25,729 nucleotides of DNA from a virus (taxonomy: Duplodnaviria; Heunggongvirae; Uroviricota; Caudoviricetes), in IMG/VR virus record IMGVR_UViG_2585427783_000006, positions 1 through 25,729 of that record. The stretch is one strand, 5' to 3'. Shown piece by piece: positions 1,047 to 14,982 of the stretch. The position numbers and the translations under genes are program-made. Every line of letters begins with the position of its first letter. Position 1 is the first letter of the stretch. Below the pieces are notes generated by a model. It was not told the DNA's origin. It worked only from the letters and a program-made list of their open reading frames with translations, and searched no databases.

Positions 1047-1373
1047 TTACTCCCTGACAGGGTTCGTAGGCCACTCAATATCAGGTGCAGTTGATGTATC
1101 AACACGGTTCAGCAACACCCGATACTTTTTCCAGGCTTCCACCACCAGCACGACAAGATGCCGCATACAGTGACCCAGTCAGTCCAGTTTCCAGACAACT
1201 AGTGCGTCACCTTTTTGAAGGCGCTTTAAAGCACGTTTTAATCCAGGTCGGCCTGTCCTTGTTCCGCTTAATTTATCTTCAAATATTTGTTCACATCCTG
1301 CACAAACAAGAGCGTTTCGTTGCAGGTCTGTATTCTGGTCATTTGTTGATACCCTTACATAGCCAATCAGCAC
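1047..1373 (-). pseudogene. pin: Pin/Gin/Hin-family serine DNA invertase remnant: premature TGA after codon ~72, then in-frame fusion to a tfa 3' end
   Basis: The N-terminus (GTG start at 1373, LIGYVRVSTNDQNTDLQRNAL...VVWKLD) matches the invertase catalytic domain including the active-site Ser in YVRVS. TGA at 1179-1181 sits where Arg is expected. The frame continues [13 protein letters not shown] and then switches to [23 protein letters not shown] (Tfa C-terminus). The resolvase core and C-terminal HTH are absent. Confidence 0.8.
1069..1141. repeat. 73-bp direct repeat copy B (tfa 3' end fused to the pin remnant)
   Basis: 71 of 73 nt identical to 20-92. Confidence 0.9.
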
Positions 1374-1427: not shown

Positions 1428-1453
1428 TTATCTAAAACCTCGGTTTACAGGAA
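1428..1453. other. Inversion crossover site (gix/pix-like), left
   Basis: TTATCTAAAACCTCGGTTTACAGGAA matches the remembered Gin/Pin recombination site consensus; an inverted copy lies at 3208-3233. Confidence 0.75.
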
Positions 1454-1477
1454 ACGGTAAACAGGGCCAGGAACGCC

Positions 1478-2518
1478 GTGCAAAAGAATGGCGATACCTT
1501 GTCCGGTGGGCTTACTTTTGCAAACGACTCAATCCTTGCCTGGATTAGAAATACTGACTGGGCGAAGATTGGATTTAAAAATGATGCCGACAGCGATACT
1601 GATTCATACATGTGGTTTGAAACAGGCGACAACGGCAATGAATATTTCAAATGGAGAAGCCGCCATGGCACCACAACAAAAGACCTGATGAATCTTAAAT
1701 GGGGTGCTTTGTATGTTCTTGTTAAAGCCCTTTTCGGCAGTGAAGTAAAAATATCGACAGTCAATGCACTGAGGATTTTTAATTCATCCTTTGGTGCTAT
1801 TTTTCGCCGTTCTGAAGAACACCTGCATATCATCCCTACACGAGAAAATGAGGGTGAAAATGGAGATATTGGGCCATTAAGGCCATTCAACATCAACTTA
1901 AGAACAGGAGTTGTGTCTGTTGGTAATGGTGCCAGGATTGATGGCGGGCTGGCACTTGGCACGAATAACGCGTTGGGTGGGAACTCAATTGTTCTTGGTG
2001 ATAATGATACCGGATTTAAACAGAATGGTGATGGTATTCTTGATGTTTACGCTAATAGTCAGCGAGTATTCCGCTTTCAGAATGGAGTGGCTATTGCTTT
2101 TAAAAACATTCAGGCAGGTGATAGTAAAAAATTCTCGCTATCCAGCTCCAACAACTCCACGAAGAACGTAGGGTTTAATTTATGGGGCACTTCATCAAGA
2201 CCAACTGTTGCAGAGCTTGGTGATGATTCAGGCTGGCATTTCTATAGTCAGCGAAATACAGATAACTCAGTAACATTTGCTGTTAACGGTCAGATACAGC
2301 CCAGCAACTGGGGGAATTTTGATTCCCGCTATGTGAAAGATGTTCGCCTGGGTACGCGTGTTGTTCAATTGATGGCGCGTGGTGGTCGTTATGAAAAAGC
2401 CGGACACGCAATTACCGGATTAAGAATCATTGGTGAAGTAGATGGCGATGATGAAGCCATCTTCAGGCCAATACAAAAATACATCAATGGCACATGGTAT
2501 AACGTCGTACAGGTGTAA
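1478..2518 (+). CDS. stf: Side tail fibre variable C-terminal cassette (Sv'), promoterless; coding continues upstream to the crossover site
   Basis: QKNGDTLSGGLTFANDSILAWIRNTDWAKIGFKNDAD...GTWYNVVQV matches the C-terminal receptor-binding part of lambda Stf. It lies immediately after the left crossover site and inside the invertible segment. Confidence 0.8.
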   Translation: MQKNGDTLSGGLTFANDSILAWIRNTDWAKIGFKNDADSDTDSYMWFETGDNGNEYFKWRSRHGTTTKDLMNLKWGALYVLVKALFGSEVKISTVNALRIFNSSFGAIFRRSEEHLHIIPTRENEGENGDIGPLRPFNINLRTGVVSVGNGARIDGGLALGTNNALGGNSIVLGDNDTGFKQNGDGILDVYANSQRVFRFQNGVAIAFKNIQAGDSKKFSLSSSNNSTKNVGFNLWGTSSRPTVAELGDDSGWHFYSQRNTDNSVTFAVNGQIQPSNWGNFDSRYVKDVRLGTRVVQLMARGGRYEKAGHAITGLRIIGEVDGDDEAIFRPIQKYINGTWYNVVQV

Positions 2519-2521
2519 TTT

Positions 2522-3049
2522 ATGCAGCATTTAAAAAATATTAAGTCTGGAAATCCAAAAACAAAAGAACAATATCAGCTAACAAAGAATTTTGATGTTA
2601 TCTGGTTATATACAGAAGACGGTAAAAACTGGTATGAGGAAGTGAAAAACTTTCAGCCAGACACAATAAAGATTGTTTACGATGCAAATAATATTATTGT
2701 CGCCATCACCAAAGATGCCTCCACGCTTAACCCTGAAGGTTATAGCGTCGTTGAGGTTCCAGATATTACAGCCAACCGCCGCGCTGATGATTCCGGTAAG
2801 TGGATGTTTAGGGACGGAGCTGTGGTTAAACGGATTTATACGGCAGACGAGCAACAACAACAGGCCGAATCACAAAAGGCCGCATTGCTTTCCGAAGCTG
2901 AATCAGTCATCCAACCGCTGGAACGCGCTGTCAGGCTGAATATGGCAACAGACGAGGAACGCACACGACTGGAAGCATGGGAACGCTACAGTGTTCTGGT
3001 CAGCCGTGTGGATACGGCAAATCCTGAATGGCCACAAAAACCAGAGTAA
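2522..3049 (+). CDS. tfa: Tail fibre assembly protein Tfa, 175 aa
   Basis: Directly follows the Sv' cassette; Tfa-like C-terminus ([32 protein letters not shown]). Confidence 0.8.
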
Positions 3050-5037
3050 AAATTAAGGCCCGATGTCCAGACCTGACTATCGCCACCAATATTCAGCCAT
3101 GAGCTATATGCGCGGCAGGCACCAATATTTTTGGTGAAGGTATCTTTTCCTGGAATATCTGCGCCGTTCTGGTTTTTCTGTAATGCGCCAGAAGCCTGAC
3201 TTACCGTTTCCTGTAAACCGAGGTATTCGATAACAGCGGCAACGGTCGATTTCGCAAGAATATCCCGCCCGACTTTTGTCAGGGTTGCCAGGCTGGCGAC
3301 ATCATTCCCCGTAAAATACGGAAACCTGTCTGCCGCAGTAGCAAGCCCGGCCAGCGCCGTCAGGGTGGCATCTTTCGGTTGCTTACCCGCAAGCGCGTTA
3401 GTCATGGTGGTCGCAAAATTCGGGTCGTTTCCCAGCGCCGCCGCCAGCTCGTTCAGCGTATTCAGTGCGTCAGGCGACGAGTCTACAAGTGCGGCAATCG
3501 CGGCCATCACATAAGCCGTGCTTGCGATCTGAGTATTATTAGTCCCTTTTGGCGCAGTTGGCGTTGTTGGCGTTCCGGTCAGCGCAGGACTGTTTAAAGG
3601 CGCTTTCTTGTTCGTTTCATCCATTACCGCCTTAACCGCTTTTGGTGTCGCAGCCAGCGTTTCAGACGGGCTGTTAGTGGCGCTACTGAGCTGAACTATC
3701 CCTTTTCGTGCCGTCGTTGCATCCTGAGCGGTATATTTTGCGTTAGCAAGGTCATATGCTGCCTTTACTGCCTTTGGTGTTGCCGCCAGTGACTCGGAAG
3801 TGCTGTTGGTCGCACTGCTGAGCTGAACCACACCTTTTTTCGTCGTGCTCGCATCTTCCAGAGATACGGCATCAGCAATATCCTCTGCCCGTTTTGCTGC
3901 TGTTTCGGCACGCGTTGCCGCGGATTCAGCAGCAACTTTGCTCTGAGATGCAGCCGTCGCACTGCCTGCCGCCTCTGATGCTTTCGTTGTTGCTGTCGTG
4001 GCACTACCTTTCGCTGCTGACGCTTGTCTGGTCGCCTCATCTTTTGAAGCAGACGCAGATGATGCCGATGACGCCGCTGAACCAGCGGACGATGCGGCTG
4101 CCGCCTTAGAGGAAGCAGCATTGTCTGCTGAAGTCTTTGCATTTGTTTCAGAGGTTTTTGCTGCAGAAGCAGACCTCGCTGCTGCAGTGGCTTGCTTAGT
4201 GGCTTCGCCAGCCTTCGTTGTGGCTGTTGAAGCGGATGATGCGGCGCTTTCTGCCGATTTTCCGGCGGCGGTGGCACTGGCTGAGGCCTGCCCGGCACTT
4301 GTTGACGCGGCACTGGCCGACGATGCAGCCGCTGTTTTTGAACCTGCCGCAGCTGAGGCACTCTGTGCTGCTGCCGTTTCAGAAGACTTAGCGTTTGTCT
4401 CAGACGTCTTTGCCGCCTTCGCGGAATTTCCTGCCGCCGTTGCCGAGGAAGCTGCACTACTGGCACTTGATGATGCATTCGTTTCTGATGATTTCGCTGC
4501 CTCTTTTGAGGCCGCCGCCCCCCGTGCCGAGGTGGCAGCTTCTGACGCCTTCGTGGTCGCTGTGGATGCAGAAGTGGCTGCCGATTTTTGTGATGCTGCG
4601 GCATTCGTTTCTGACGTTTTCGCGGCACTGGCGCTGGTAGCTGCCGCGCTTTTTGATGACTCTGCAGCAGCAGCACTTTTCGCTGCTTCACTGGCCTTTG
4701 TCGATGCCGTTCCTGCGCTGGAAGACGCTGACTGAGCCGACGACGCGGCCTGTCCGGCTGACGTGCTGGCTGCGCGTGCTGAGCCTGCAGCATCAGTCGC
4801 ATGGGTTGCCGCCTCACGGGCTGATGTGCTGGCATCACTGGCTGACTTCTTCGCGGCTGCCGTGTTCTGTGCCACTGCGGACGCGTTACGCGCCACCTCT
4901 TCCACCATCAGTTCAAAACGGCGCAGTGCCTCCGGACGGGCATCATCCTCCGTCATGGCACCGAGAAAATCATTCAGCGTACCGGGTCGGGAATCTTCAT
5001 ACACGGTGATGGTCCCGGCATGTGACGGCGGGAATCC
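2986..5037 (-). pseudogene. stf: Side tail fibre Stf constant region, N-terminally truncated by the J-stf deletion and currently joined to a non-homologous C-terminal stub
   Basis: GFPPSHAGTITVYEDS...long Ala/Ser-rich repeats...AVIEYLGLQETV matches lambda Stf from about residue 60 to the crossover point. After the crossover the frame reads antisense through the tfa 3' end. Confidence 0.8.
3208..3233. other. Inversion crossover site (gix/pix-like), right, inside the stf reading frame
   Basis: TTCCTGTAAACCGAGGTATTCGATAA is the inverted partner of 1428-1453 (16 bp identical in one half-site). It encodes ...IEYLGLQE... at the constant/variable junction of the tail fibre. Confidence 0.75.
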
Positions 5038-7165
5038 GGAACGATACCGACGCCGGATCGCCCTGCTGTCCCCATGCATTTACTGCCCGGACTGTCAGCC
5101 TGTAGTTCCCCAGAGCCAGTTGTGTGAAGCGGTAAGTGGTTTCCGTCGTCCGGGCCGTGCTGACCAGCCGCTCACTGCCGTCATCCGCTGCCACGGTCAG
5201 GCGAAGCATAAAGCTCACCCCCTTCACCACCTTCGGCGTGTCCCAGCGGGCCAGCACCTGGTATTCCCCGCTGTCTGCGGTGACTTCGGCGGTCAGATGC
5301 TGCACTGCTGGCGGCGTGACACCATTCACCGTGCCGCTCTGGTTACCGTCAAAGTGCGCCCCGTTATCCACGATGGCTTCTTTCTCCGGTACATGCTGCA
5401 CTGCAGTGATGGCATACGTACCGTCGTCGTTCTCACGGATACTCACACAGCGGAACAGGCGCTGGCGCAGCGTCGGCAGCTTCAGCCCCCACACGCTGTA
5501 CTCGGCAACGCCGTCAGGAACCCGGCTCACTTTCACCTTCACGCCGTCGGTGATGGACTGGACCTCCACGCTGACCGGATTGCCACTTCCGTCAACCAGG
5601 CTTATCAGCGTGGTGCCGGAGGATGGCAGCGTGATTTCACGGTCGAGCGTCAGCGTCCGGGTCTGGCTGTTCACCGCCAGCACGCGCCCGCCGGTGCTGA
5701 TACCGGCATAGTCATCATCGCAGATTTCAATGACATCGCCCGGTACATGGCGAAGCCCTTCGGCACCCACGCTGAAGTCCACGGTCTGCGTCTCCAGCAG
5801 TTCTGTTTTAATCAGCCACAGCCCGGCGCGGTGTGCCTGCCCCCGGCTGGTACAGCCAAAAGCATCCATCTTCGTGACGTTACGGCCGTAACGGGCAATG
5901 GCCTGCGTGTCCTCCACAAGCTCTGTCGCCGTCTCCCAGCCGTTGTTCGGGTCAATCCAGTTCACCTCAACGGCATTATGGCGGTCCTTCAGGGCGCTGA
6001 AGCTGTAGCGGAACGGCGCGCCATCATCCGGCATCACCACATTACTGCGGTTATAGGTCCACACCTTATCTGATGGTCGGTCCTGCACGAACGTCAGCGT
6101 CTGCCCGTTCCATACCGGCATACAGCGCATCGCCGAGCAGAAATCACTGAGCACATCCCACGCCTTGCGCTGTGTGGTCAGGTACGCATTACAGGTGATG
6201 CGCGGCTCCGTGCCGCCAAAGCCGTCCGGCACTGACTGGTCGCAGTACTGGCCGATAACATACAACGCCCATTTATCCACATCCGCCGCACCAAGACGTT
6301 TCCCCATGCCGTAGCGCGGATGGGTCAGCATATCCCACAGACACCAGGCCATGTTGTTGCTGTATGCCGGTTTAAACGTTCCGTCCCAGATACCGCTGTA
6401 TTGCCGCGTCTGCGGGTTATAATTCGACGGCACCTGCAGAATACGCCCGCGCAGATGATAATTACGGCTCACCTGCTGGCTGCCGAACTGCTCCGAGTCC
6501 ACCTGCACGCCGACCAGTACCGTGTTCGGGTAGCACTGTTTCACATCGATAATTTCGGTGTATGACGACCAGAGCGTTTTGTTCTGCAGCTGGTCTGTGG
6601 TGCTGTCCGGCGTCATCCTGCGCATCCGGATACTGAACGGGCGCGGCGGCAGGTTATCCACCACCACCGAGGCCAGATACTGTGAAGTGGTTTTACCCTT
6701 AATGGTGATGTCTTTTTCCGTCACCCAGCCACCGTTACGCTGGATCTGAACCAGCAGGCGGACTTCCGACGGATTCCTGTCCCCCTTTGAGGTGGTTTCC
6801 ACCAGTGCCTGCACGCCGAAGGTAAAACGCAGTCGGTCAATGTTTGCCGACGTGATGGTCCGGGTGATCGGCGTGTCGTATTTCACTTCCGTACCCAGCA
6901 CCGTCTCGGAGCCGGAGGATTCAAATCCCTCCGGCGGTGTCTGCTCCTGCTCACCGGCCCGGAACACCACCGTGACGCCGGATATATTGGTATTCCCCTC
7001 ACTGTCCAGCACCGGCGTACTGTTCAGCAGCACGCTTTTTAATCCATCCACCGGACCTTCAACCGGCCCTTCGCTGATAGCATCGATCACACTCAGCAGC
7101 TGCGTGGACTTCAGGTTGTCCTTCGCTTCGCGCGGGGTATGCCCCTTACTGCTGCCTTTACCCAT
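4997..7165 (-). pseudogene. J: Host specificity protein J, truncated after about residue 716; C-terminal receptor-binding region deleted
   Basis: MGKGSSKGHTPREAKDNLKSTQLLSVIDAISEGP... is near-identical to lambda J through ...ASVSFRI, then 11 unrelated codons and a stop. Full J is remembered as about 1130 aa. Confidence 0.85.
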
Positions 7166-9570: not shown

Positions 9571-12041
9571 CGTCCACCTCCGGAGAACAGACCACCATCG
9601 CGCATCTGTGCCTGAATTTCATCACGGGCCCCCTTACGGGCCATGTCATACACTGCCTTCATCATCTGTGGACCTGGCAGACCATTCGTACCGTCGTTCT
9701 GAATCACCACGTGATTGTTCTGATTAAAATTAATGCCTTCCGCCCGCCGCATCTGCGCCGGACTTCCGGCACCGCCCACATAACCACCTTCCGCATAGCC
9801 GCGCATCAGCCGGTAGAGATTTCCCACGCCAATCCGGCTGGTTGCCTCCTTCGTGAAGACAAATTCACCACGGTGAACAATCCCCGCTGGCTCATATTTG
9901 CCGCCAGTTCCCGTAAATCCCCCGGTCGCAAAATGGAATTTTGCCGCAGCAGCCTGAATGGCTGTACCGCCTGACACTGATGCGCCACCACCGGCAGCAC
10001 CGCCAATGGCGCTGCCGATACTCCCGACAATTCCCACCATTGCCTGCTTAAGCAGAATTTCTGTCATCATGGACAGCACGGAACGGGTGAAGCTGCGCCA
10101 GTTCTGCTCACTGCCGGTCAGCATCGCCGCCATATTCTGTGCAATACCATCAAAGGTCTGCGTGGCAGCACTTTTAACCTGCGACATACTGTCCGTGGCG
10201 CTCTCTTTCCACTCACTCCAGCCTGACCTGAGGCCTGCCATCCAGCTCCCGCGAAGCTGGTCTTCAGCTGCCCAGGTCTTTTTCTGCTCTGACATGACGT
10301 TATTCAGCGCCAGAGGATTATCGCCATACTGTTCCTTCAGGCGCTGTTCCGTGGCTTCCCTCGCTGCCTGCCGGTCAGTCAGCCCCCGGTTTTTCGCATC
10401 AATGGCGGCCCGTTTTGCCCGTTGCTGCTGTGCGAATTTATCCGCCTGCTGTGCCAGCGCGTTCAGGTGTTCCTGATAGGTGACCTTGTCGCCAAGTGCA
10501 GCCAGCTGGCGTTTGTACTCCAGCGTCTCATCTTTATGCGCCAGCAGGGATTTCTCCTGTGCAGACAGCTGGCGACGTTGCGCCGCCTCCTCCAGTACCG
10601 CGAACTGACTCTCCGCCTTCCACAAATCCCGGCGCTGCTGGCTGATTTTTTCATTCGCTCCACTATGCTGCTCAAGCATTTTTAGTTCAGCTTGTAACGC
10701 AAGAAGAGCTGCATGTGCTCGATCTTCCTGACGCTCTCCCGCAGCGGACTGCTTCGGCTTTTTCAGCGTCGCTTCATAGTCCTTTTTCGCCGCCGCCATC
10801 AGCGTGTTGTAATCTGCCTGCAGGATTTTCCCGTCTTTCAGTGCCTTGTTCAGTTCTTCCTGACGAGCGGTATATTTCTCCAGCGGCGTCTGCAGGCGTT
10901 CGTAAGCCTTCTGCGCCTCTTCGGTATATTTCAGCCGTGATGCCTCAGACTCGGCCCAGTCCTTTGCTGCCATCTCTCTGGCCTTTTCAAGATCGGCCTG
11001 CAACGTGGCGGCTGAAAGCCCAAGTTGCGCATTCGCTCTGTCCTCCCATGCTCCCCGGAGATTGGCAAGAAATGCTGAGGTTTTACCGCGCCGGTGGCTC
11101 CGGCTCTGATACCACTGCCATTTTTTGTCCGCCTCATCAAAAGCCTTTTCTGCTTTCTCCAGCATTCCCTGGGCAGTGTCCGGGCGACCAATATCCAGCA
11201 CCGCATCCCACATGGATTTGAATGCCCGTGCTGTCCTGTCTGCCCAGGTCTCCAGCGTGCCCATGTTCTCTTTCAGGCGGAGGGTCTGGTCATCAAACCC
11301 TTTCGTTGCGGCCTCGTTCGCCGCCTGCAATGCCCCGGCTTCATCTCCGGAACGCTGCAACTGAGCAACATACGCAATCTGCTCCGCCGTCACGTTATGG
11401 AACTGACGTGCCATCGCTGTCAGTCCCGACGTCGGGTCTGTGGTCAGCTTCCCGAAGGCTTCAGCGACCTTGTCCACCTCCACGCCGGATGCAGAGGAGA
11501 AACGCGCCACACTCTGGCTGATCGCCTCAAACTGCTCACCACCACGCACACCGGCATTCACCAGCGCCGTCAGTGACTCGCTGGTCTGGTTAAACGTCAG
11601 CCCTGCCGCCTGCCCGGCTCTGGACAGGACCAGCATACGATCTGCCGTCAGTCCCGCCTGATTGCCGGAAAGGACCAGCGTTTTGTTGAAATCGGACAGG
11701 GTTGAGTTGCCCTGATACCAGGCATACGCCAGCGCACCGGTCGCCACCGCCAGCGAGGTGGCCCCCACCATCGGCAGGGTGATCGCACCGGCAAGCCCCC
11801 TGAACATGGGGATCATCCCGCCGAAGGAGTCCTTCACCTGACCACCCTGTTGCAGCAGGATCAGCCACGGACTTTGCCCGCCTGCAAGCTGCGTGGCCAC
11901 GTCAGTGAACTGTGCAGGCAGCATACGCATGGCGGCTTTATACTGTCCGACGGAAATGGCCATTGCGGCGGCACCGGGCACCGCCGTTCTGCTGATACGG
12001 CTGAGGTTTTCAACGGCCTGCTCAAGACCTTTTATGGCCAT
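9567..12041 (-). CDS. H: Tape measure protein H carrying the N-terminal ~29 codons of tail gene Z (in-frame Z'-'H deletion fusion), 824 aa
   Basis: The N-terminus MAIKGLEQAVENLSRISRTAVPGAAAMAI matches the remembered lambda Z start; from SVGQYKAAMRMLPAQFTDVATQLAGG onward it matches lambda H. The gene begins 12 nt after the FII stop, where Z should sit. Confidence 0.75.
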   Translation of the reverse strand: MAIKGLEQAVENLSRISRTAVPGAAAMAISVGQYKAAMRMLPAQFTDVATQLAGGQSPWLILLQQGGQVKDSFGGMIPMFRGLAGAITLPMVGATSLAVATGALAYAWYQGNSTLSDFNKTLVLSGNQAGLTADRMLVLSRAGQAAGLTFNQTSESLTALVNAGVRGGEQFEAISQSVARFSSASGVEVDKVAEAFGKLTTDPTSGLTAMARQFHNVTAEQIAYVAQLQRSGDEAGALQAANEAATKGFDDQTLRLKENMGTLETWADRTARAFKSMWDAVLDIGRPDTAQGMLEKAEKAFDEADKKWQWYQSRSHRRGKTSAFLANLRGAWEDRANAQLGLSAATLQADLEKAREMAAKDWAESEASRLKYTEEAQKAYERLQTPLEKYTARQEELNKALKDGKILQADYNTLMAAAKKDYEATLKKPKQSAAGERQEDRAHAALLALQAELKMLEQHSGANEKISQQRRDLWKAESQFAVLEEAAQRRQLSAQEKSLLAHKDETLEYKRQLAALGDKVTYQEHLNALAQQADKFAQQQRAKRAAIDAKNRGLTDRQAAREATEQRLKEQYGDNPLALNNVMSEQKKTWAAEDQLRGSWMAGLRSGWSEWKESATDSMSQVKSAATQTFDGIAQNMAAMLTGSEQNWRSFTRSVLSMMTEILLKQAMVGIVGSIGSAIGGAAGGGASVSGGTAIQAAAAKFHFATGGFTGTGGKYEPAGIVHRGEFVFTKEATSRIGVGNLYRLMRGYAEGGYVGGAGSPAQMRRAEGINFNQNNHVVIQNDGTNGLPGPQMMKAVYDMARKGARDEIQAQMRDGGLFSGGGR

Positions 12042-14732: not shown

Positions 14733-14809
14733 TGGCGCGTTGTACTGGATTCGAACCAGTGACCGATTGCTTAGAAGGCAATTGCTCTGTCCGGCTGAGC
14801 TAACAACGC
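14733..14809 (-). tRNA. argN: tRNA-Arg (anticodon UCU; argN/argU-like)
   Basis: Folded by hand: 7-bp acceptor stem GCGTTGT/ACAACGC, D-arm GCTC/GAGC, anticodon loop CTTCTAA, T-loop GGTTCGAATCC, 3' GCCA. Confidence 0.85.
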
Positions 14810-14906: not shown

Positions 14907-14982
14907 TGGTGGCCCTTGCTGGATTTGAACCAGCGACCTGGCGATTATGAGTCGCTCGCTCTCACCACTGAGCTAAAGGGCC
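14907..14982 (-). tRNA. ileZ: tRNA with CAU anticodon, ileX/ileZ-like (tRNA-Ile2 reading AUA; could alternatively be tRNA-Met)
   Basis: Sequence closely resembles remembered E. coli ileX. Acceptor stem GGCCCTT/AAGGGCC, anticodon loop CTCATAA, T-loop GGTTCAAATCC, CCA encoded. Confidence 0.8.

Follow-up and report, generated by a model that had tools for sequence, protein, structure and literature searches.

A long inverted repeat lies near the start of the window, by which we mean the whole 25,729-nucleotide stretch of DNA that was analysed. Its two arms, at 1428-1460 and 3201-3233, are 33 nt long with two mismatches and are separated by 1,740 nt; the runner-up inverted repeat in the same 6 kb was 28 nt at 75%. 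The arms enclose tail-fibre genes and are bordered by the remnant of an invertase gene on one side and by a side-tail-fibre gene, stf, on the other. The features of the region are as follows.

1067-1178, minus strand: tfa 3' end that continues the frame of the gin remnant and stands in place of gin beyond about codon 77
1179-1373, minus strand: gin pseudogene; 96.9% identity to Mu Gin over codons 1-64, then TGA (1179-1181, codon 65)
1253-1373, minus strand: block with 100% identity to the gin DNA of Mu; offset from the gix core, 68-188
1428-1460: left arm of the repeat, with a gix-type 26-bp site at 1428-1453 (TC crossover dinucleotide at 1440-1441; 25/26 with Mu gixL)
1454-2518, plus strand: Sv, the variable tail-fibre part of the intact cassette; first ~280 nt 95% identical to Mu Sv; PF21446
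2522-3049, plus strand: tfa, the tail-fibre assembly chaperone (U type) of the intact cassette; 175 aa, 93% identical to Mu U; PF02413
3064-3065: junction of a 1,350-bp deletion; relative to strain E8, chaperone U' and ~800 nt of the S'v 3' part are missing
3065-3200, minus strand: 5' remnant of S'v, from a second variable cassette; 95.9% nucleotide and 88% protein identity to the start of Mu S'v
3201-3233: right arm of the repeat, with a gix-type 26-bp site at 3208-3233 (GA crossover dinucleotide at 3220-3221; 24/26 with Mu gixR)
3234-5038, minus strand: constant part (Sc) of stf, lambda Stf-like, ~75-81% identical to lambda orf-401/orf-314; PF08400 and PF03406
5028-5038: 2.27-kb deletion junction; lost are ~440 codons at the C-terminal end of J, the whole of lom and the stf 5' end; 11-nt overlap of the aligned pieces
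4997-7165, minus strand: truncated tail-tip gene J; an ORF of 722 aa, as compared with 1159 aa in strain E1433, running out of frame into stf

The left site (1428-1453) reads TTATCTAAAACC-TC-GGTTTACAGGAA and the right site (3208-3233) reads TTCCTGTAAACC-GA-GGTATTCGATAA. The TC and GA cores are reverse complements, and the two sites are inverted with matching central dinucleotides. The pair of inverted 26-bp gix/pix-like sites reported in a first-pass annotation of this DNA is thus present, and both sites align with the validated sites of Mu, the right one showing two differences from gixR. The boundary of the Mu G segment, as annotated, coincides with the same core dinucleotide. Besides one hit at chance level, the window contains no further AAACCNNGGTTT-type core. 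Homology to Mu takes in gixL, Sv, U, S'v, gixR and gin at 90–96% nucleotide identity. The likeness to the G segment and Gin of Mu is seen in the sites (25/26 and 24/26, with the same GA/TC core), in U, the opening parts of Sv and S'v, and codons 1-64 of gin (90–97% identity), and in the gene order, where a site falls within the fibre ORF and one of the sites adjoins the gene for the invertase; the full 3.1-kb segment with two cassettes is found in sister strains. In contrast to Mu, where the N-terminus of S is 170 aa, the constant part in the window is a lambda-type Stf of ~620 aa, and the Sv tip resembles P2 gpH, with ~89% protein identity to the gpH C-terminus. Further differences are the deletion of one cassette, the decay of gin to a pseudogene and the location in a dead lambdoid prophage. 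The element is of a known kind, and its mechanism is the textbook one of Mu Gin and gix.

The two fusions that the sites allow were examined. Sc is at present joined in frame to S'v, and inversion of 1440-3221 in silico joined it in frame to Sv, the site lying inside the fibre ORF. The flipped product is a Stf of 978 aa with the sequence ...VIEYLGLQETVNRARNAVQKNGDTLSGG..., in agreement with the fusion predicted earlier from the stf constant region and the left-site half, and the U-type chaperone starts 3 nt later. Unless joined to Sc, Sv is without a start of its own. The match to lambda Stf that the first-pass annotation had read across this junction was rejected: the lambda-like sequence extends as far as ...EYLG (Stf residue 624) and breaks off exactly at the gix site, and Mu S fits from there on, LGLQETVNRARNAVQKNGDTLSGG being identical to Mu S residues about 179-202. 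The window tfa matches lambda Tfa over the last 65 residues only, at 45%. Exact look-ups of the 697-, 978- and 938-aa versions of Stf gave no match, because gene callers take an internal start. With that start both products are on record, the present one as 212 aa and the flipped one as 493 aa; the contigs recorded for the flipped product differ in length from those recorded for the truncated J, so that other strains with a disrupted stf may be the source of the 493-aa entry.

The locus had been described as a single-cassette switch. There is indeed one complete Sv–tfa cassette, on the plus strand, but this is not a design; it is the product of the 1,350-bp deletion in a normal two-cassette G segment. 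The two-cassette version is kept in E8, L1_E925 and E1433, at 99.7–100% identity. Two complete, opposed cassettes of tip and chaperone are therefore a property of the sister strains and not of the window, which retains only Sv–U in full, with S'v broken off after ~52 codons and U' gone. The sequence at the 3064 junction is AAGGCCCGAT up to the join and GTCCAGACC after it. The deletion ends share 1 nt of microhomology, and the hairpin between the cassettes has been cut through. Deletion by an invertase at a pseudo-site was ruled out, as there is no gix-like core near either endpoint, and the event is for this reason treated as illegitimate recombination. The S'v remnant is now fused to Sc, and the frame continues antisense into tfa up to a stop at 2986-2988. 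The stub was previously given as 80 codons antisense to tfa. It has ~77 codons, and the description holds for the last 21; the first ~52 (3220 down to 3065) are the true 5' end of S'v. The earlier view of the present orientation, in which stf ends in a truncated variable part without a cognate chaperone, is nevertheless correct.

Neither the 1,350-bp nor the 2.27-kb deletion junction was present in 5,426 complete E. coli genomes or in a metagenome scan, as might be expected if the single-cassette structure were an assembly artefact, produced by collapse or a mis-join at the invertible repeat. However, both junctions lie within 14.2 kb that is 100% identical in two NCBI assemblies, GCA_000714095.1 and GCA_049987545.1, and an independent read assembly (ERR568862) is 100% identical over the 12.4 kb of its contig. 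The 3064 junction, moreover, is inside unique sequence, away from the repeats. With the same structure in three independent assemblies, an artefact is hardly credible and was discarded.

The cognate invertase has been inactivated, as the first-pass annotation had stated. Its reading frame meets TGA at codon 65, and homology to Gin stops at about codon 77, from which point the tfa 3' end is fused. Pfam recognized the Resolvase domain (PF00239) at positions 2-73 of 145 only, and neither an E-helix nor a DNA-binding domain was detected in the remnant. The catalytic Ser9 motif, VRVSTNDQ, is retained; S9 of Gin has been described as catalytic (PMC3575834). A 76-nt copy of the tfa 3' end is also found at 17-92, and in sister genomes the fusion is annotated as a partial tail fiber assembly protein. 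No second Gin homologue is present within the window. With the cognate gin dead, a flip needs an invertase in trans, in line with the earlier proposal. The block at 1253-1373 contains G-N13-C motifs 48 bp apart. For hin, a Fis-dependent recombinational enhancer has been described, with its size and its distance to the site (about 100-165 bp) (PMC3798978). The block in the window spans the position of the hin enhancer, and it may have the same role here.

These observations fit a scheme in which the normal form, as it occurs in the sister strains, is a 3.1-kb segment between inverted gix sites that holds two opposed cassettes, Sv–U and S'v–U'. A serine invertase would cut at the central dinucleotide of both sites, aided by Fis at an enhancer within the invertase gene, near its 5' end, and rotation of the segment would join the stf constant part to one variable tip or the other. 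The copy in the window shows three lesions. The illegitimate 1,350-bp deletion took away U' together with most of S'v, so that one cassette is left; gin has become a pseudogene, with its stop at codon 65 and the tfa 3' end fused from about codon 77; and the second deletion fused the truncated J to stf at codon 65, with the loss of lom. Both gix sites, and the gin 5' DNA in which the enhancer would be expected, are still intact. A flip of the deletion variant would alternate between the Sc–S'v stub and Sc–Sv followed by U.

Orientation was compared among genomes that share the dead invertase gene. At least 155 complete E. coli genomes carry an identical gin'::tfa pseudogene; 97 of them have one orientation and 58 the other, although these genomes are not independent events. 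The same difference is seen between near-identical enterotoxigenic (ETEC) strains, five of which (E8, E1648, E1654, E1739 and E1316) are opposed to three (E54, E1433 and E1620), and ten tfa-anchored loci divided 5 to 5. In a comparison of GCA_040813135.1 with GCA_040813155.1, the flanks were 100% and 99.96% identical and the inversion breakpoints fell inside the 33-nt repeats. That genomes sharing one inactive gin show both orientations, and that the breakpoints fall within the repeats, indicates that the full-length segment is still inverted by an invertase encoded elsewhere. It implies that an invertase would act in trans on the full-length form of this lineage. The first-pass annotation had called the switch apparently locked; at the level of the lineage this is contradicted by the 97 and 58 complete genomes and by the five and three ETEC strains, while the single-cassette variant itself has been recovered across both sites in one orientation (n = 3 assemblies).

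This last point bears on a reading in line with the first-pass annotation, that the segment is frozen in the source strain, with gin dead, no compatible invertase expressed and the stub orientation permanent. The state of gin is consistent with this, and all three of the assemblies that span the single-cassette variant share the orientation of the window. In addition, the carriers 504239, AR434, F5656C1, 2011EL-1370-2 and FMU073332 have no other gin-like sequence on the chromosome. Against it stand the two orientations behind one and the same pseudogene, even in near-identical strains and with breakpoints in the repeats, and the intact sites and enhancer zone. A flipped Sc–gix–Sv junction was also found in a read-assembly contig (L011) of the same J–stf-deletion sublineage, with the same truncated J; the contig stops 6 nt past the repeat and is hence silent on the 1,350-bp deletion. 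Near-identical sister chromosomes, furthermore, have 3-5 places each that resemble the 5' part of gin, 2-4 of them beyond the locus of the window type. A chimeric query gave 2-3 extra places for the gin 3' half in these chromosomes, a number that methyltransferase paralogues may confound. These are counts of similar sequences only, and no intact trans-acting invertase was located among them in the sister genomes. An apparent methyltransferase–recombinase neighbourhood in KUEC74 proved to be two abutting prophages. We consider a permanently frozen segment unlikely.

Inversion without any site-specific invertase, by rare RecA-dependent homologous recombination between the 33-nt repeats, was also considered. 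The repeats have a perfect stretch of 24 nt in common, and breakpoints within them would look alike under either mechanism. A stretch of 24 nt is at the lower limit for RecA-mediated exchange, so that such events should be very rare, but orientation differs repeatedly among near-identical strains (5 to 3, and 97 to 58). The repeats are, moreover, bona fide gix sites, with 24–25 of 26 positions shared with Mu, and inversion in trans by enzymes of the Pin family has been demonstrated in cryptic prophages (PMC12529663). The RecA route is accordingly a very improbable source of the orientation differences. We conclude with good confidence that the window holds a decayed Mu-type G segment, that is, a Gin-family invertible tail-fibre region, joined to a side-tail-fibre gene of the lambda type, that the lambdoid prophage around it is in decay and adjoins potB in an enterotoxigenic E. 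coli lineage, and that the full-length form of the segment is still flipped by an invertase, probably of the Gin/Pin family, whose gene lies elsewhere in the genome. The element is an ordinary relic and is unlikely to be a locked switch; its deletion variant may likewise continue to flip.

The state of the prophage determines what a flip could achieve. As a result of the J–stf deletion, stf is without its first 65 codons, and it has no ribosome-binding site; PF08400 is matched in Sc at positions 65-134 of 134 only, with the PF03406 shaft repeats present. J breaks off at about residue 712 of 1159. The prophage has also lost most head and lysis genes, and different strains show different deletions across it. 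Because stf, J and most head and lysis genes are damaged or gone, a phage could make use of neither orientation. With the prophage dead, a flip in the deletion variant is without consequence for virion production. The term 'non-productive orientation', used in the first-pass annotation, is misleading in that it implies a productive alternative, when in either orientation stf is without its start, J is truncated and most head and lysis genes are missing.

A dead prophage could still be of use to its host. The orphan segment might have been taken over, its flipping in the deletion variant serving as an ON/OFF switch, driven in trans, for a Stf-derived protein, for example against adsorption of other phages; such interference has been reported for StfE2 of e14 (PMC12529663), which provides a precedent. 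The gin'::tfa–gix–G segment module has been kept in at least 155 complete genomes with its orientation still variable, which is consistent with this possibility. However, the stf start, the first 65 codons and the upstream genes have been lost, and the promoter and terminator scan gave nothing above shuffles, with no promoter-like site upstream of stf. The strain-specific deletions across the same prophage are the pattern expected of neutral decay. We therefore regard host takeover as very improbable. An equally doubtful extension would have many E. coli lineages retain the module as an orphan switch run by the invertases of other prophages, a node in a network of inversion between prophages, with the single-cassette variant as a trans-controlled switch for a host-beneficial Stf-derived protein that blocks phage adsorption.

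The decayed G segment has a close parallel in the P segment of e14, a cryptic prophage of E. coli K-12; PinQ flips this P segment in trans (Kirigo et al. 2025, PMC12529663). Like the segment in the window, it measures ~1.8 kb, lies in a cryptic lambdoid prophage and has its inverted sites within opposed tail-fibre genes; the enzyme that inverts it comes from another prophage, and either orientation is common among sequenced genomes (PMC12529663). PinE still works in e14, whereas in the window the cognate enzyme is inactive and one of the fusions yields a truncated stub. The e14 sites (TTCTCCCAAACC-AA) differ in their core from those of the window, and they match the window half-sites at only ~8 of 12 positions. 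As a tail-fibre switch the locus carries no weight for phage biology, the prophage being dead and the mechanism textbook. Its value, a modest one, is comparative, as an invertible segment that has outlived its own invertase and whose orientation still changes across near-identical genomes. An orphan segment of this kind supports the idea that the invertases of one prophage act on the segments of another, as recently shown for PinQ and e14. For annotation and assembly, the orientation and the gene content of the locus vary among otherwise identical ETEC genomes, so that differences in 'tail fibre' genes at this place reflect flips and decay rather than gene acquisition.

Two other known systems are close to the element. 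The lambda genes for Stf and Tfa (orf-401/orf-314/orf-194) resemble it in the constant part, up to ...EYLG, and in the order J–lom–stf–tfa found in sister strains; in contrast to the window, lambda has no invertible segment, and the chaperone in the window is of the Mu U type. P2-like E. coli prophages, such as that of strain 13KWH46, have nearly the same gix–S'v–U'–U module beside a 195-aa recombinase, the N-terminus of which matches the gin fragment of the window; unlike the window, they have an intact invertase, two cassettes and a constant part of the P2 H type.

When the first 6 kb of the window was scanned for inverted repeats, one pair stood out, at 1428-1460 and 3201-3233, with arms of 33 nt that carry two mismatches and are separated by 1,740 nt; the runner-up was 28 nt long at 75%. 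The central dinucleotides of the two 26-bp sites are reverse complements of each other, and no match to the palindromic core AAACCNNGGTTT was returned other than these sites and a chance-level one at 940. That match (940-951, AAACCAAGGTTC) resembles a hix/pix core but for one mismatch and lies inside a methyltransferase gene; its adjacent half-sites are unlike gix or hix, and the match count is within chance, three hits being reached in 4 of 100 shuffles.

Sites and reading frames of the segment (window coordinates)
1428-1453, left 26-bp site, TTATCTAAAACC-TC-GGTTTACAGGAA
3208-3233, right 26-bp site, TTCCTGTAAACC-GA-GGTATTCGATAA
1454-2518, plus strand, C-terminal part of the tail fibre (Sv), PF21446, 346-354 codons
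2522-3049, plus strand, tail-fibre assembly protein (chaperone), PF02413, 175 aa
2986-5079, minus strand, stf ORF, 697 codons, crossing the right-hand site into the segment

Inversion of 1440-3221 in silico generated a 978-aa ORF containing ...VIEYLGLQETVNRARNAVQKNGDTLSGG..., with the chaperone gene beginning 3 nt past its stop. The repeat scan and this ORF bear out the site coordinates and the in-frame join predicted by the first-pass annotation. Two long alternative-frame ORFs inside the Ala/Ser-rich repeat shaft of stf (3998-4735, plus strand, 245 codons; 3765-4838, minus strand, 357 codons) are probably compositional artefacts; public assemblies include the 245-aa ORF among their called genes, and a comparable antisense orf206b is annotated in lambda, inside orf-401.

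Nucleotide comparison was made with phage Mu (NC_000929).

Matches to Mu (window coordinates, nucleotide identity)
1183-1465, 5' end of gin and gixR, 93.3%
1428-1732, gixL and start of Sv, 94.8%
2520-3064, U, 90.5%
3064-3233, start of S'v and gixR, 95.9%

The sites match Mu gixL at 25 of 26 positions and gixR at 24 of 26, which supports their proposed gix-type identity, and the annotated G-segment boundary of Mu coincides with their core dinucleotide. The encoded chaperone shares 93% of its residues with Mu U, and protein identity between the recombinase fragment and Gin residues 1-64 is 97%. In stf, the constant part (Sc) is ∼75-81% identical to lambda orf-401/orf-314, and this likeness stops at ...EYLG (residue 624); beyond it the flipped protein is Mu S-like, with the peptide LGLQETVNRARNAVQKNGDTLSGG identical to Mu S. 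The earlier statement of a lambda Stf match spanning the junction is therefore wrong. At its distal tip, Sv resembles the C-terminus of P2 gpH (∼89% identity). Judged by these identities, the locus is a mosaic in which a Mu G segment and a P2-type tip are joined to a lambda Stf shaft.

What is left of gin begins at 1373 and is interrupted at codon 65 by a TGA (1179-1181); homology to gin runs to about codon 77, followed by an in-frame fusion with the 3' end of a tfa gene (gin'::tfa). Pfam recognized half a Resolvase domain (positions 2-73 of 145) and found no DNA-binding domain in the remnant, confirming that the cognate invertase is inactivated. The motif of Ser9, which is catalytic in Gin (PMC3575834), is retained; despite this, such a protein cannot function. 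No second Gin homologue was found encoded in the window. Direct 76-nt copies of the tfa 3' end (17-92 and 1066-1141, 96% identical) flank a class I SAM-dependent methyltransferase gene (324-992, 222 aa), which in other lambdoid prophages, e.g. KUEC74, follows a complete stf-tfa pair. This suggests that the fusion arose by recombination between two prophage tail ends.

The window is part of a lambdoid prophage adjoining potB in an enterotoxigenic E. coli (ETEC) lineage. Sister strains E8 and L1_E925, 99.7-100% identical to it at the locus, keep a classic two-cassette segment, in which one strand carries stf (989 aa, Sc+S'v) with U' and the opposite strand U and Sv, followed by gix and the truncated recombinase. 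Alignment showed that 1,350 bp of E8 (5166-6515 of its locus sequence), comprising U' and ∼800 nt of S'v, are absent from the window; the junction (3064/3065) shows microhomology of 1 nt and interrupts the inter-cassette hairpin. Thus the window does hold one complete cassette, as annotated, but by deletion from two. Likewise, the 80-codon stub described as antisense to tfa is mostly the genuine 5' end of S'v (running from 3220 to 3065, with 88% protein identity to Mu S'v); its tail is 25 out-of-context codons, of which the final 21 are indeed antisense to tfa. Neither this junction nor a second one at 5028-5038 was found in 5,426 complete E. coli genomes or in a metagenome scan. An assembly artefact is excluded in practice: 14.2 kb of the window is matched at 100% in GCA_000714095.1 and GCA_049987545.1, as are the 12.4 kb contained in a contig of read assembly ERR568862.

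Orientation was assessed with 701-nt diagnostic queries running from the gin'::tfa fusion across gix into the initial 240 nt of one or the other cassette, for which at least 80% coverage is attainable solely by genomes sharing the gin'::tfa pseudogene. Complete genomes were divided between the window-like (97) and the opposite (58) orientation. Among near-identical ETEC chromosomes, E8, E1648, E1654, E1739 and E1316 are oriented as in the window, and E54, E1433 and E1620 the opposite way; the annotated stf of E1433 is a 1029-aa Sc-Sv fusion adjoining a 64-aa recombinase fragment identical to that of E8. Ten loci anchored on an identical chaperone were split five to five. GCA_040813135.1 and GCA_040813155.1, with flanks 100% and 99.96% identical, differ in that 3,157 bp are inverted, and the breakpoints fall within the 33-nt repeats. 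At the level of the lineage, these data contradict the proposal that the segment is locked. RecA-dependent exchange between the repeats could also change orientation, but this is highly improbable, as they have merely 24 perfect nt in common and orientation differs too often.

In the truncated-J sublineage, the sequence of one Logan contig (SRR31865360) passes from Sc across the half-site on that side to ACAGGG, where Sv begins. This is the flipped junction, and the contig ends 6 nt later at the expected 31-mer graph branch point. Such an end (locus 10932-10971), 6 nt beyond the repeat's inner edge on the Sc side, would be expected if the reads contained both ...TACC... and ...AACC... predecessors of a shared k-mer, which would mean that the population is mixed in orientation or that the genome has a second G-type segment. 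All assemblies of the single-cassette variant that span both sites show the window orientation, so that for this exact variant we can only infer flipping; that the segment is truly static in the window strain is unlikely.

Both orientations lie behind the same gin'::tfa pseudogene, which implies that inversion has recurred since the death of gin and that it needed an enzyme in trans. By similarity counts, sister chromosomes carry 2-4 extra gin-5'-like sequences and 2-3 extra matches to the gin 3' half. Mutual complementation is established among Gin, Cin, Pin and Hin. The putative Fis-enhancer zone (offsets 68-188) is 100% identical to Mu; in hin the enhancer lies ∼100-165 bp from the site (PMC3798978). 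Experimentally, PinQ inverts the e14 segment in trans, a cryptic-prophage segment served by the invertase of another prophage (PMC12529663).

The 5028-5038 junction (11-nt overlap) marks a second deletion, of 2.27 kb, which removed the C-terminal ∼440 codons of J, the whole of lom, and the first 65 codons and start of stf. In stf, the N-terminal fibre domain is recognized by Pfam from position 65 to 134 only, and J stops after its first Ig domain. Relative to E1433, most head and lysis genes are missing from the prophage too. Given these losses, neither orientation can be of use to a virion, and the label 'non-productive orientation', implying a productive alternative, does not hold. A host function, in the form of a Stf-derived protein switched ON/OFF and comparable to StfE2, is disfavoured: the stf start is lost, no promoter-like site was found and the deletions differ from strain to strain.

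The element descends from the Mu G/Gin system and works alike, having its sites, homology and in-frame join. It lacks an intact adjacent invertase and two complete cassettes, and is therefore a degenerate, non-functional member of this known kind, categorically nothing new. The e14 P segment, in a cryptic lambdoid prophage and flippable in trans, is a close parallel, as are the G-type modules of P2-like prophages, which have intact invertases. The first-pass observation thus largely stands and its interpretation does so in part; the value of the locus lies in clean comparative evidence of an orphan segment still flipped in trans.

Decay of this prophage is unusually fast and varies between strains that are 99.7-100% identical. 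E8 lacks J-N to L, L1_E925 lacks tail genes and E1433 the tape-measure gene; from the window J-C, lom and stf-N are missing, as are head and lysis genes, and in GCA_017762125.1 a join ∼400 bp upstream of Sv brings in the tape-measure gene. The prophage also carries, on the minus strand, tRNA-Arg(tct) and a CAT-anticodon tRNA (14733-14809 and 14907-14982), the latter called tRNA-Met by ARAGORN and tRNA-Ile in the RefSeq annotation of E1433.
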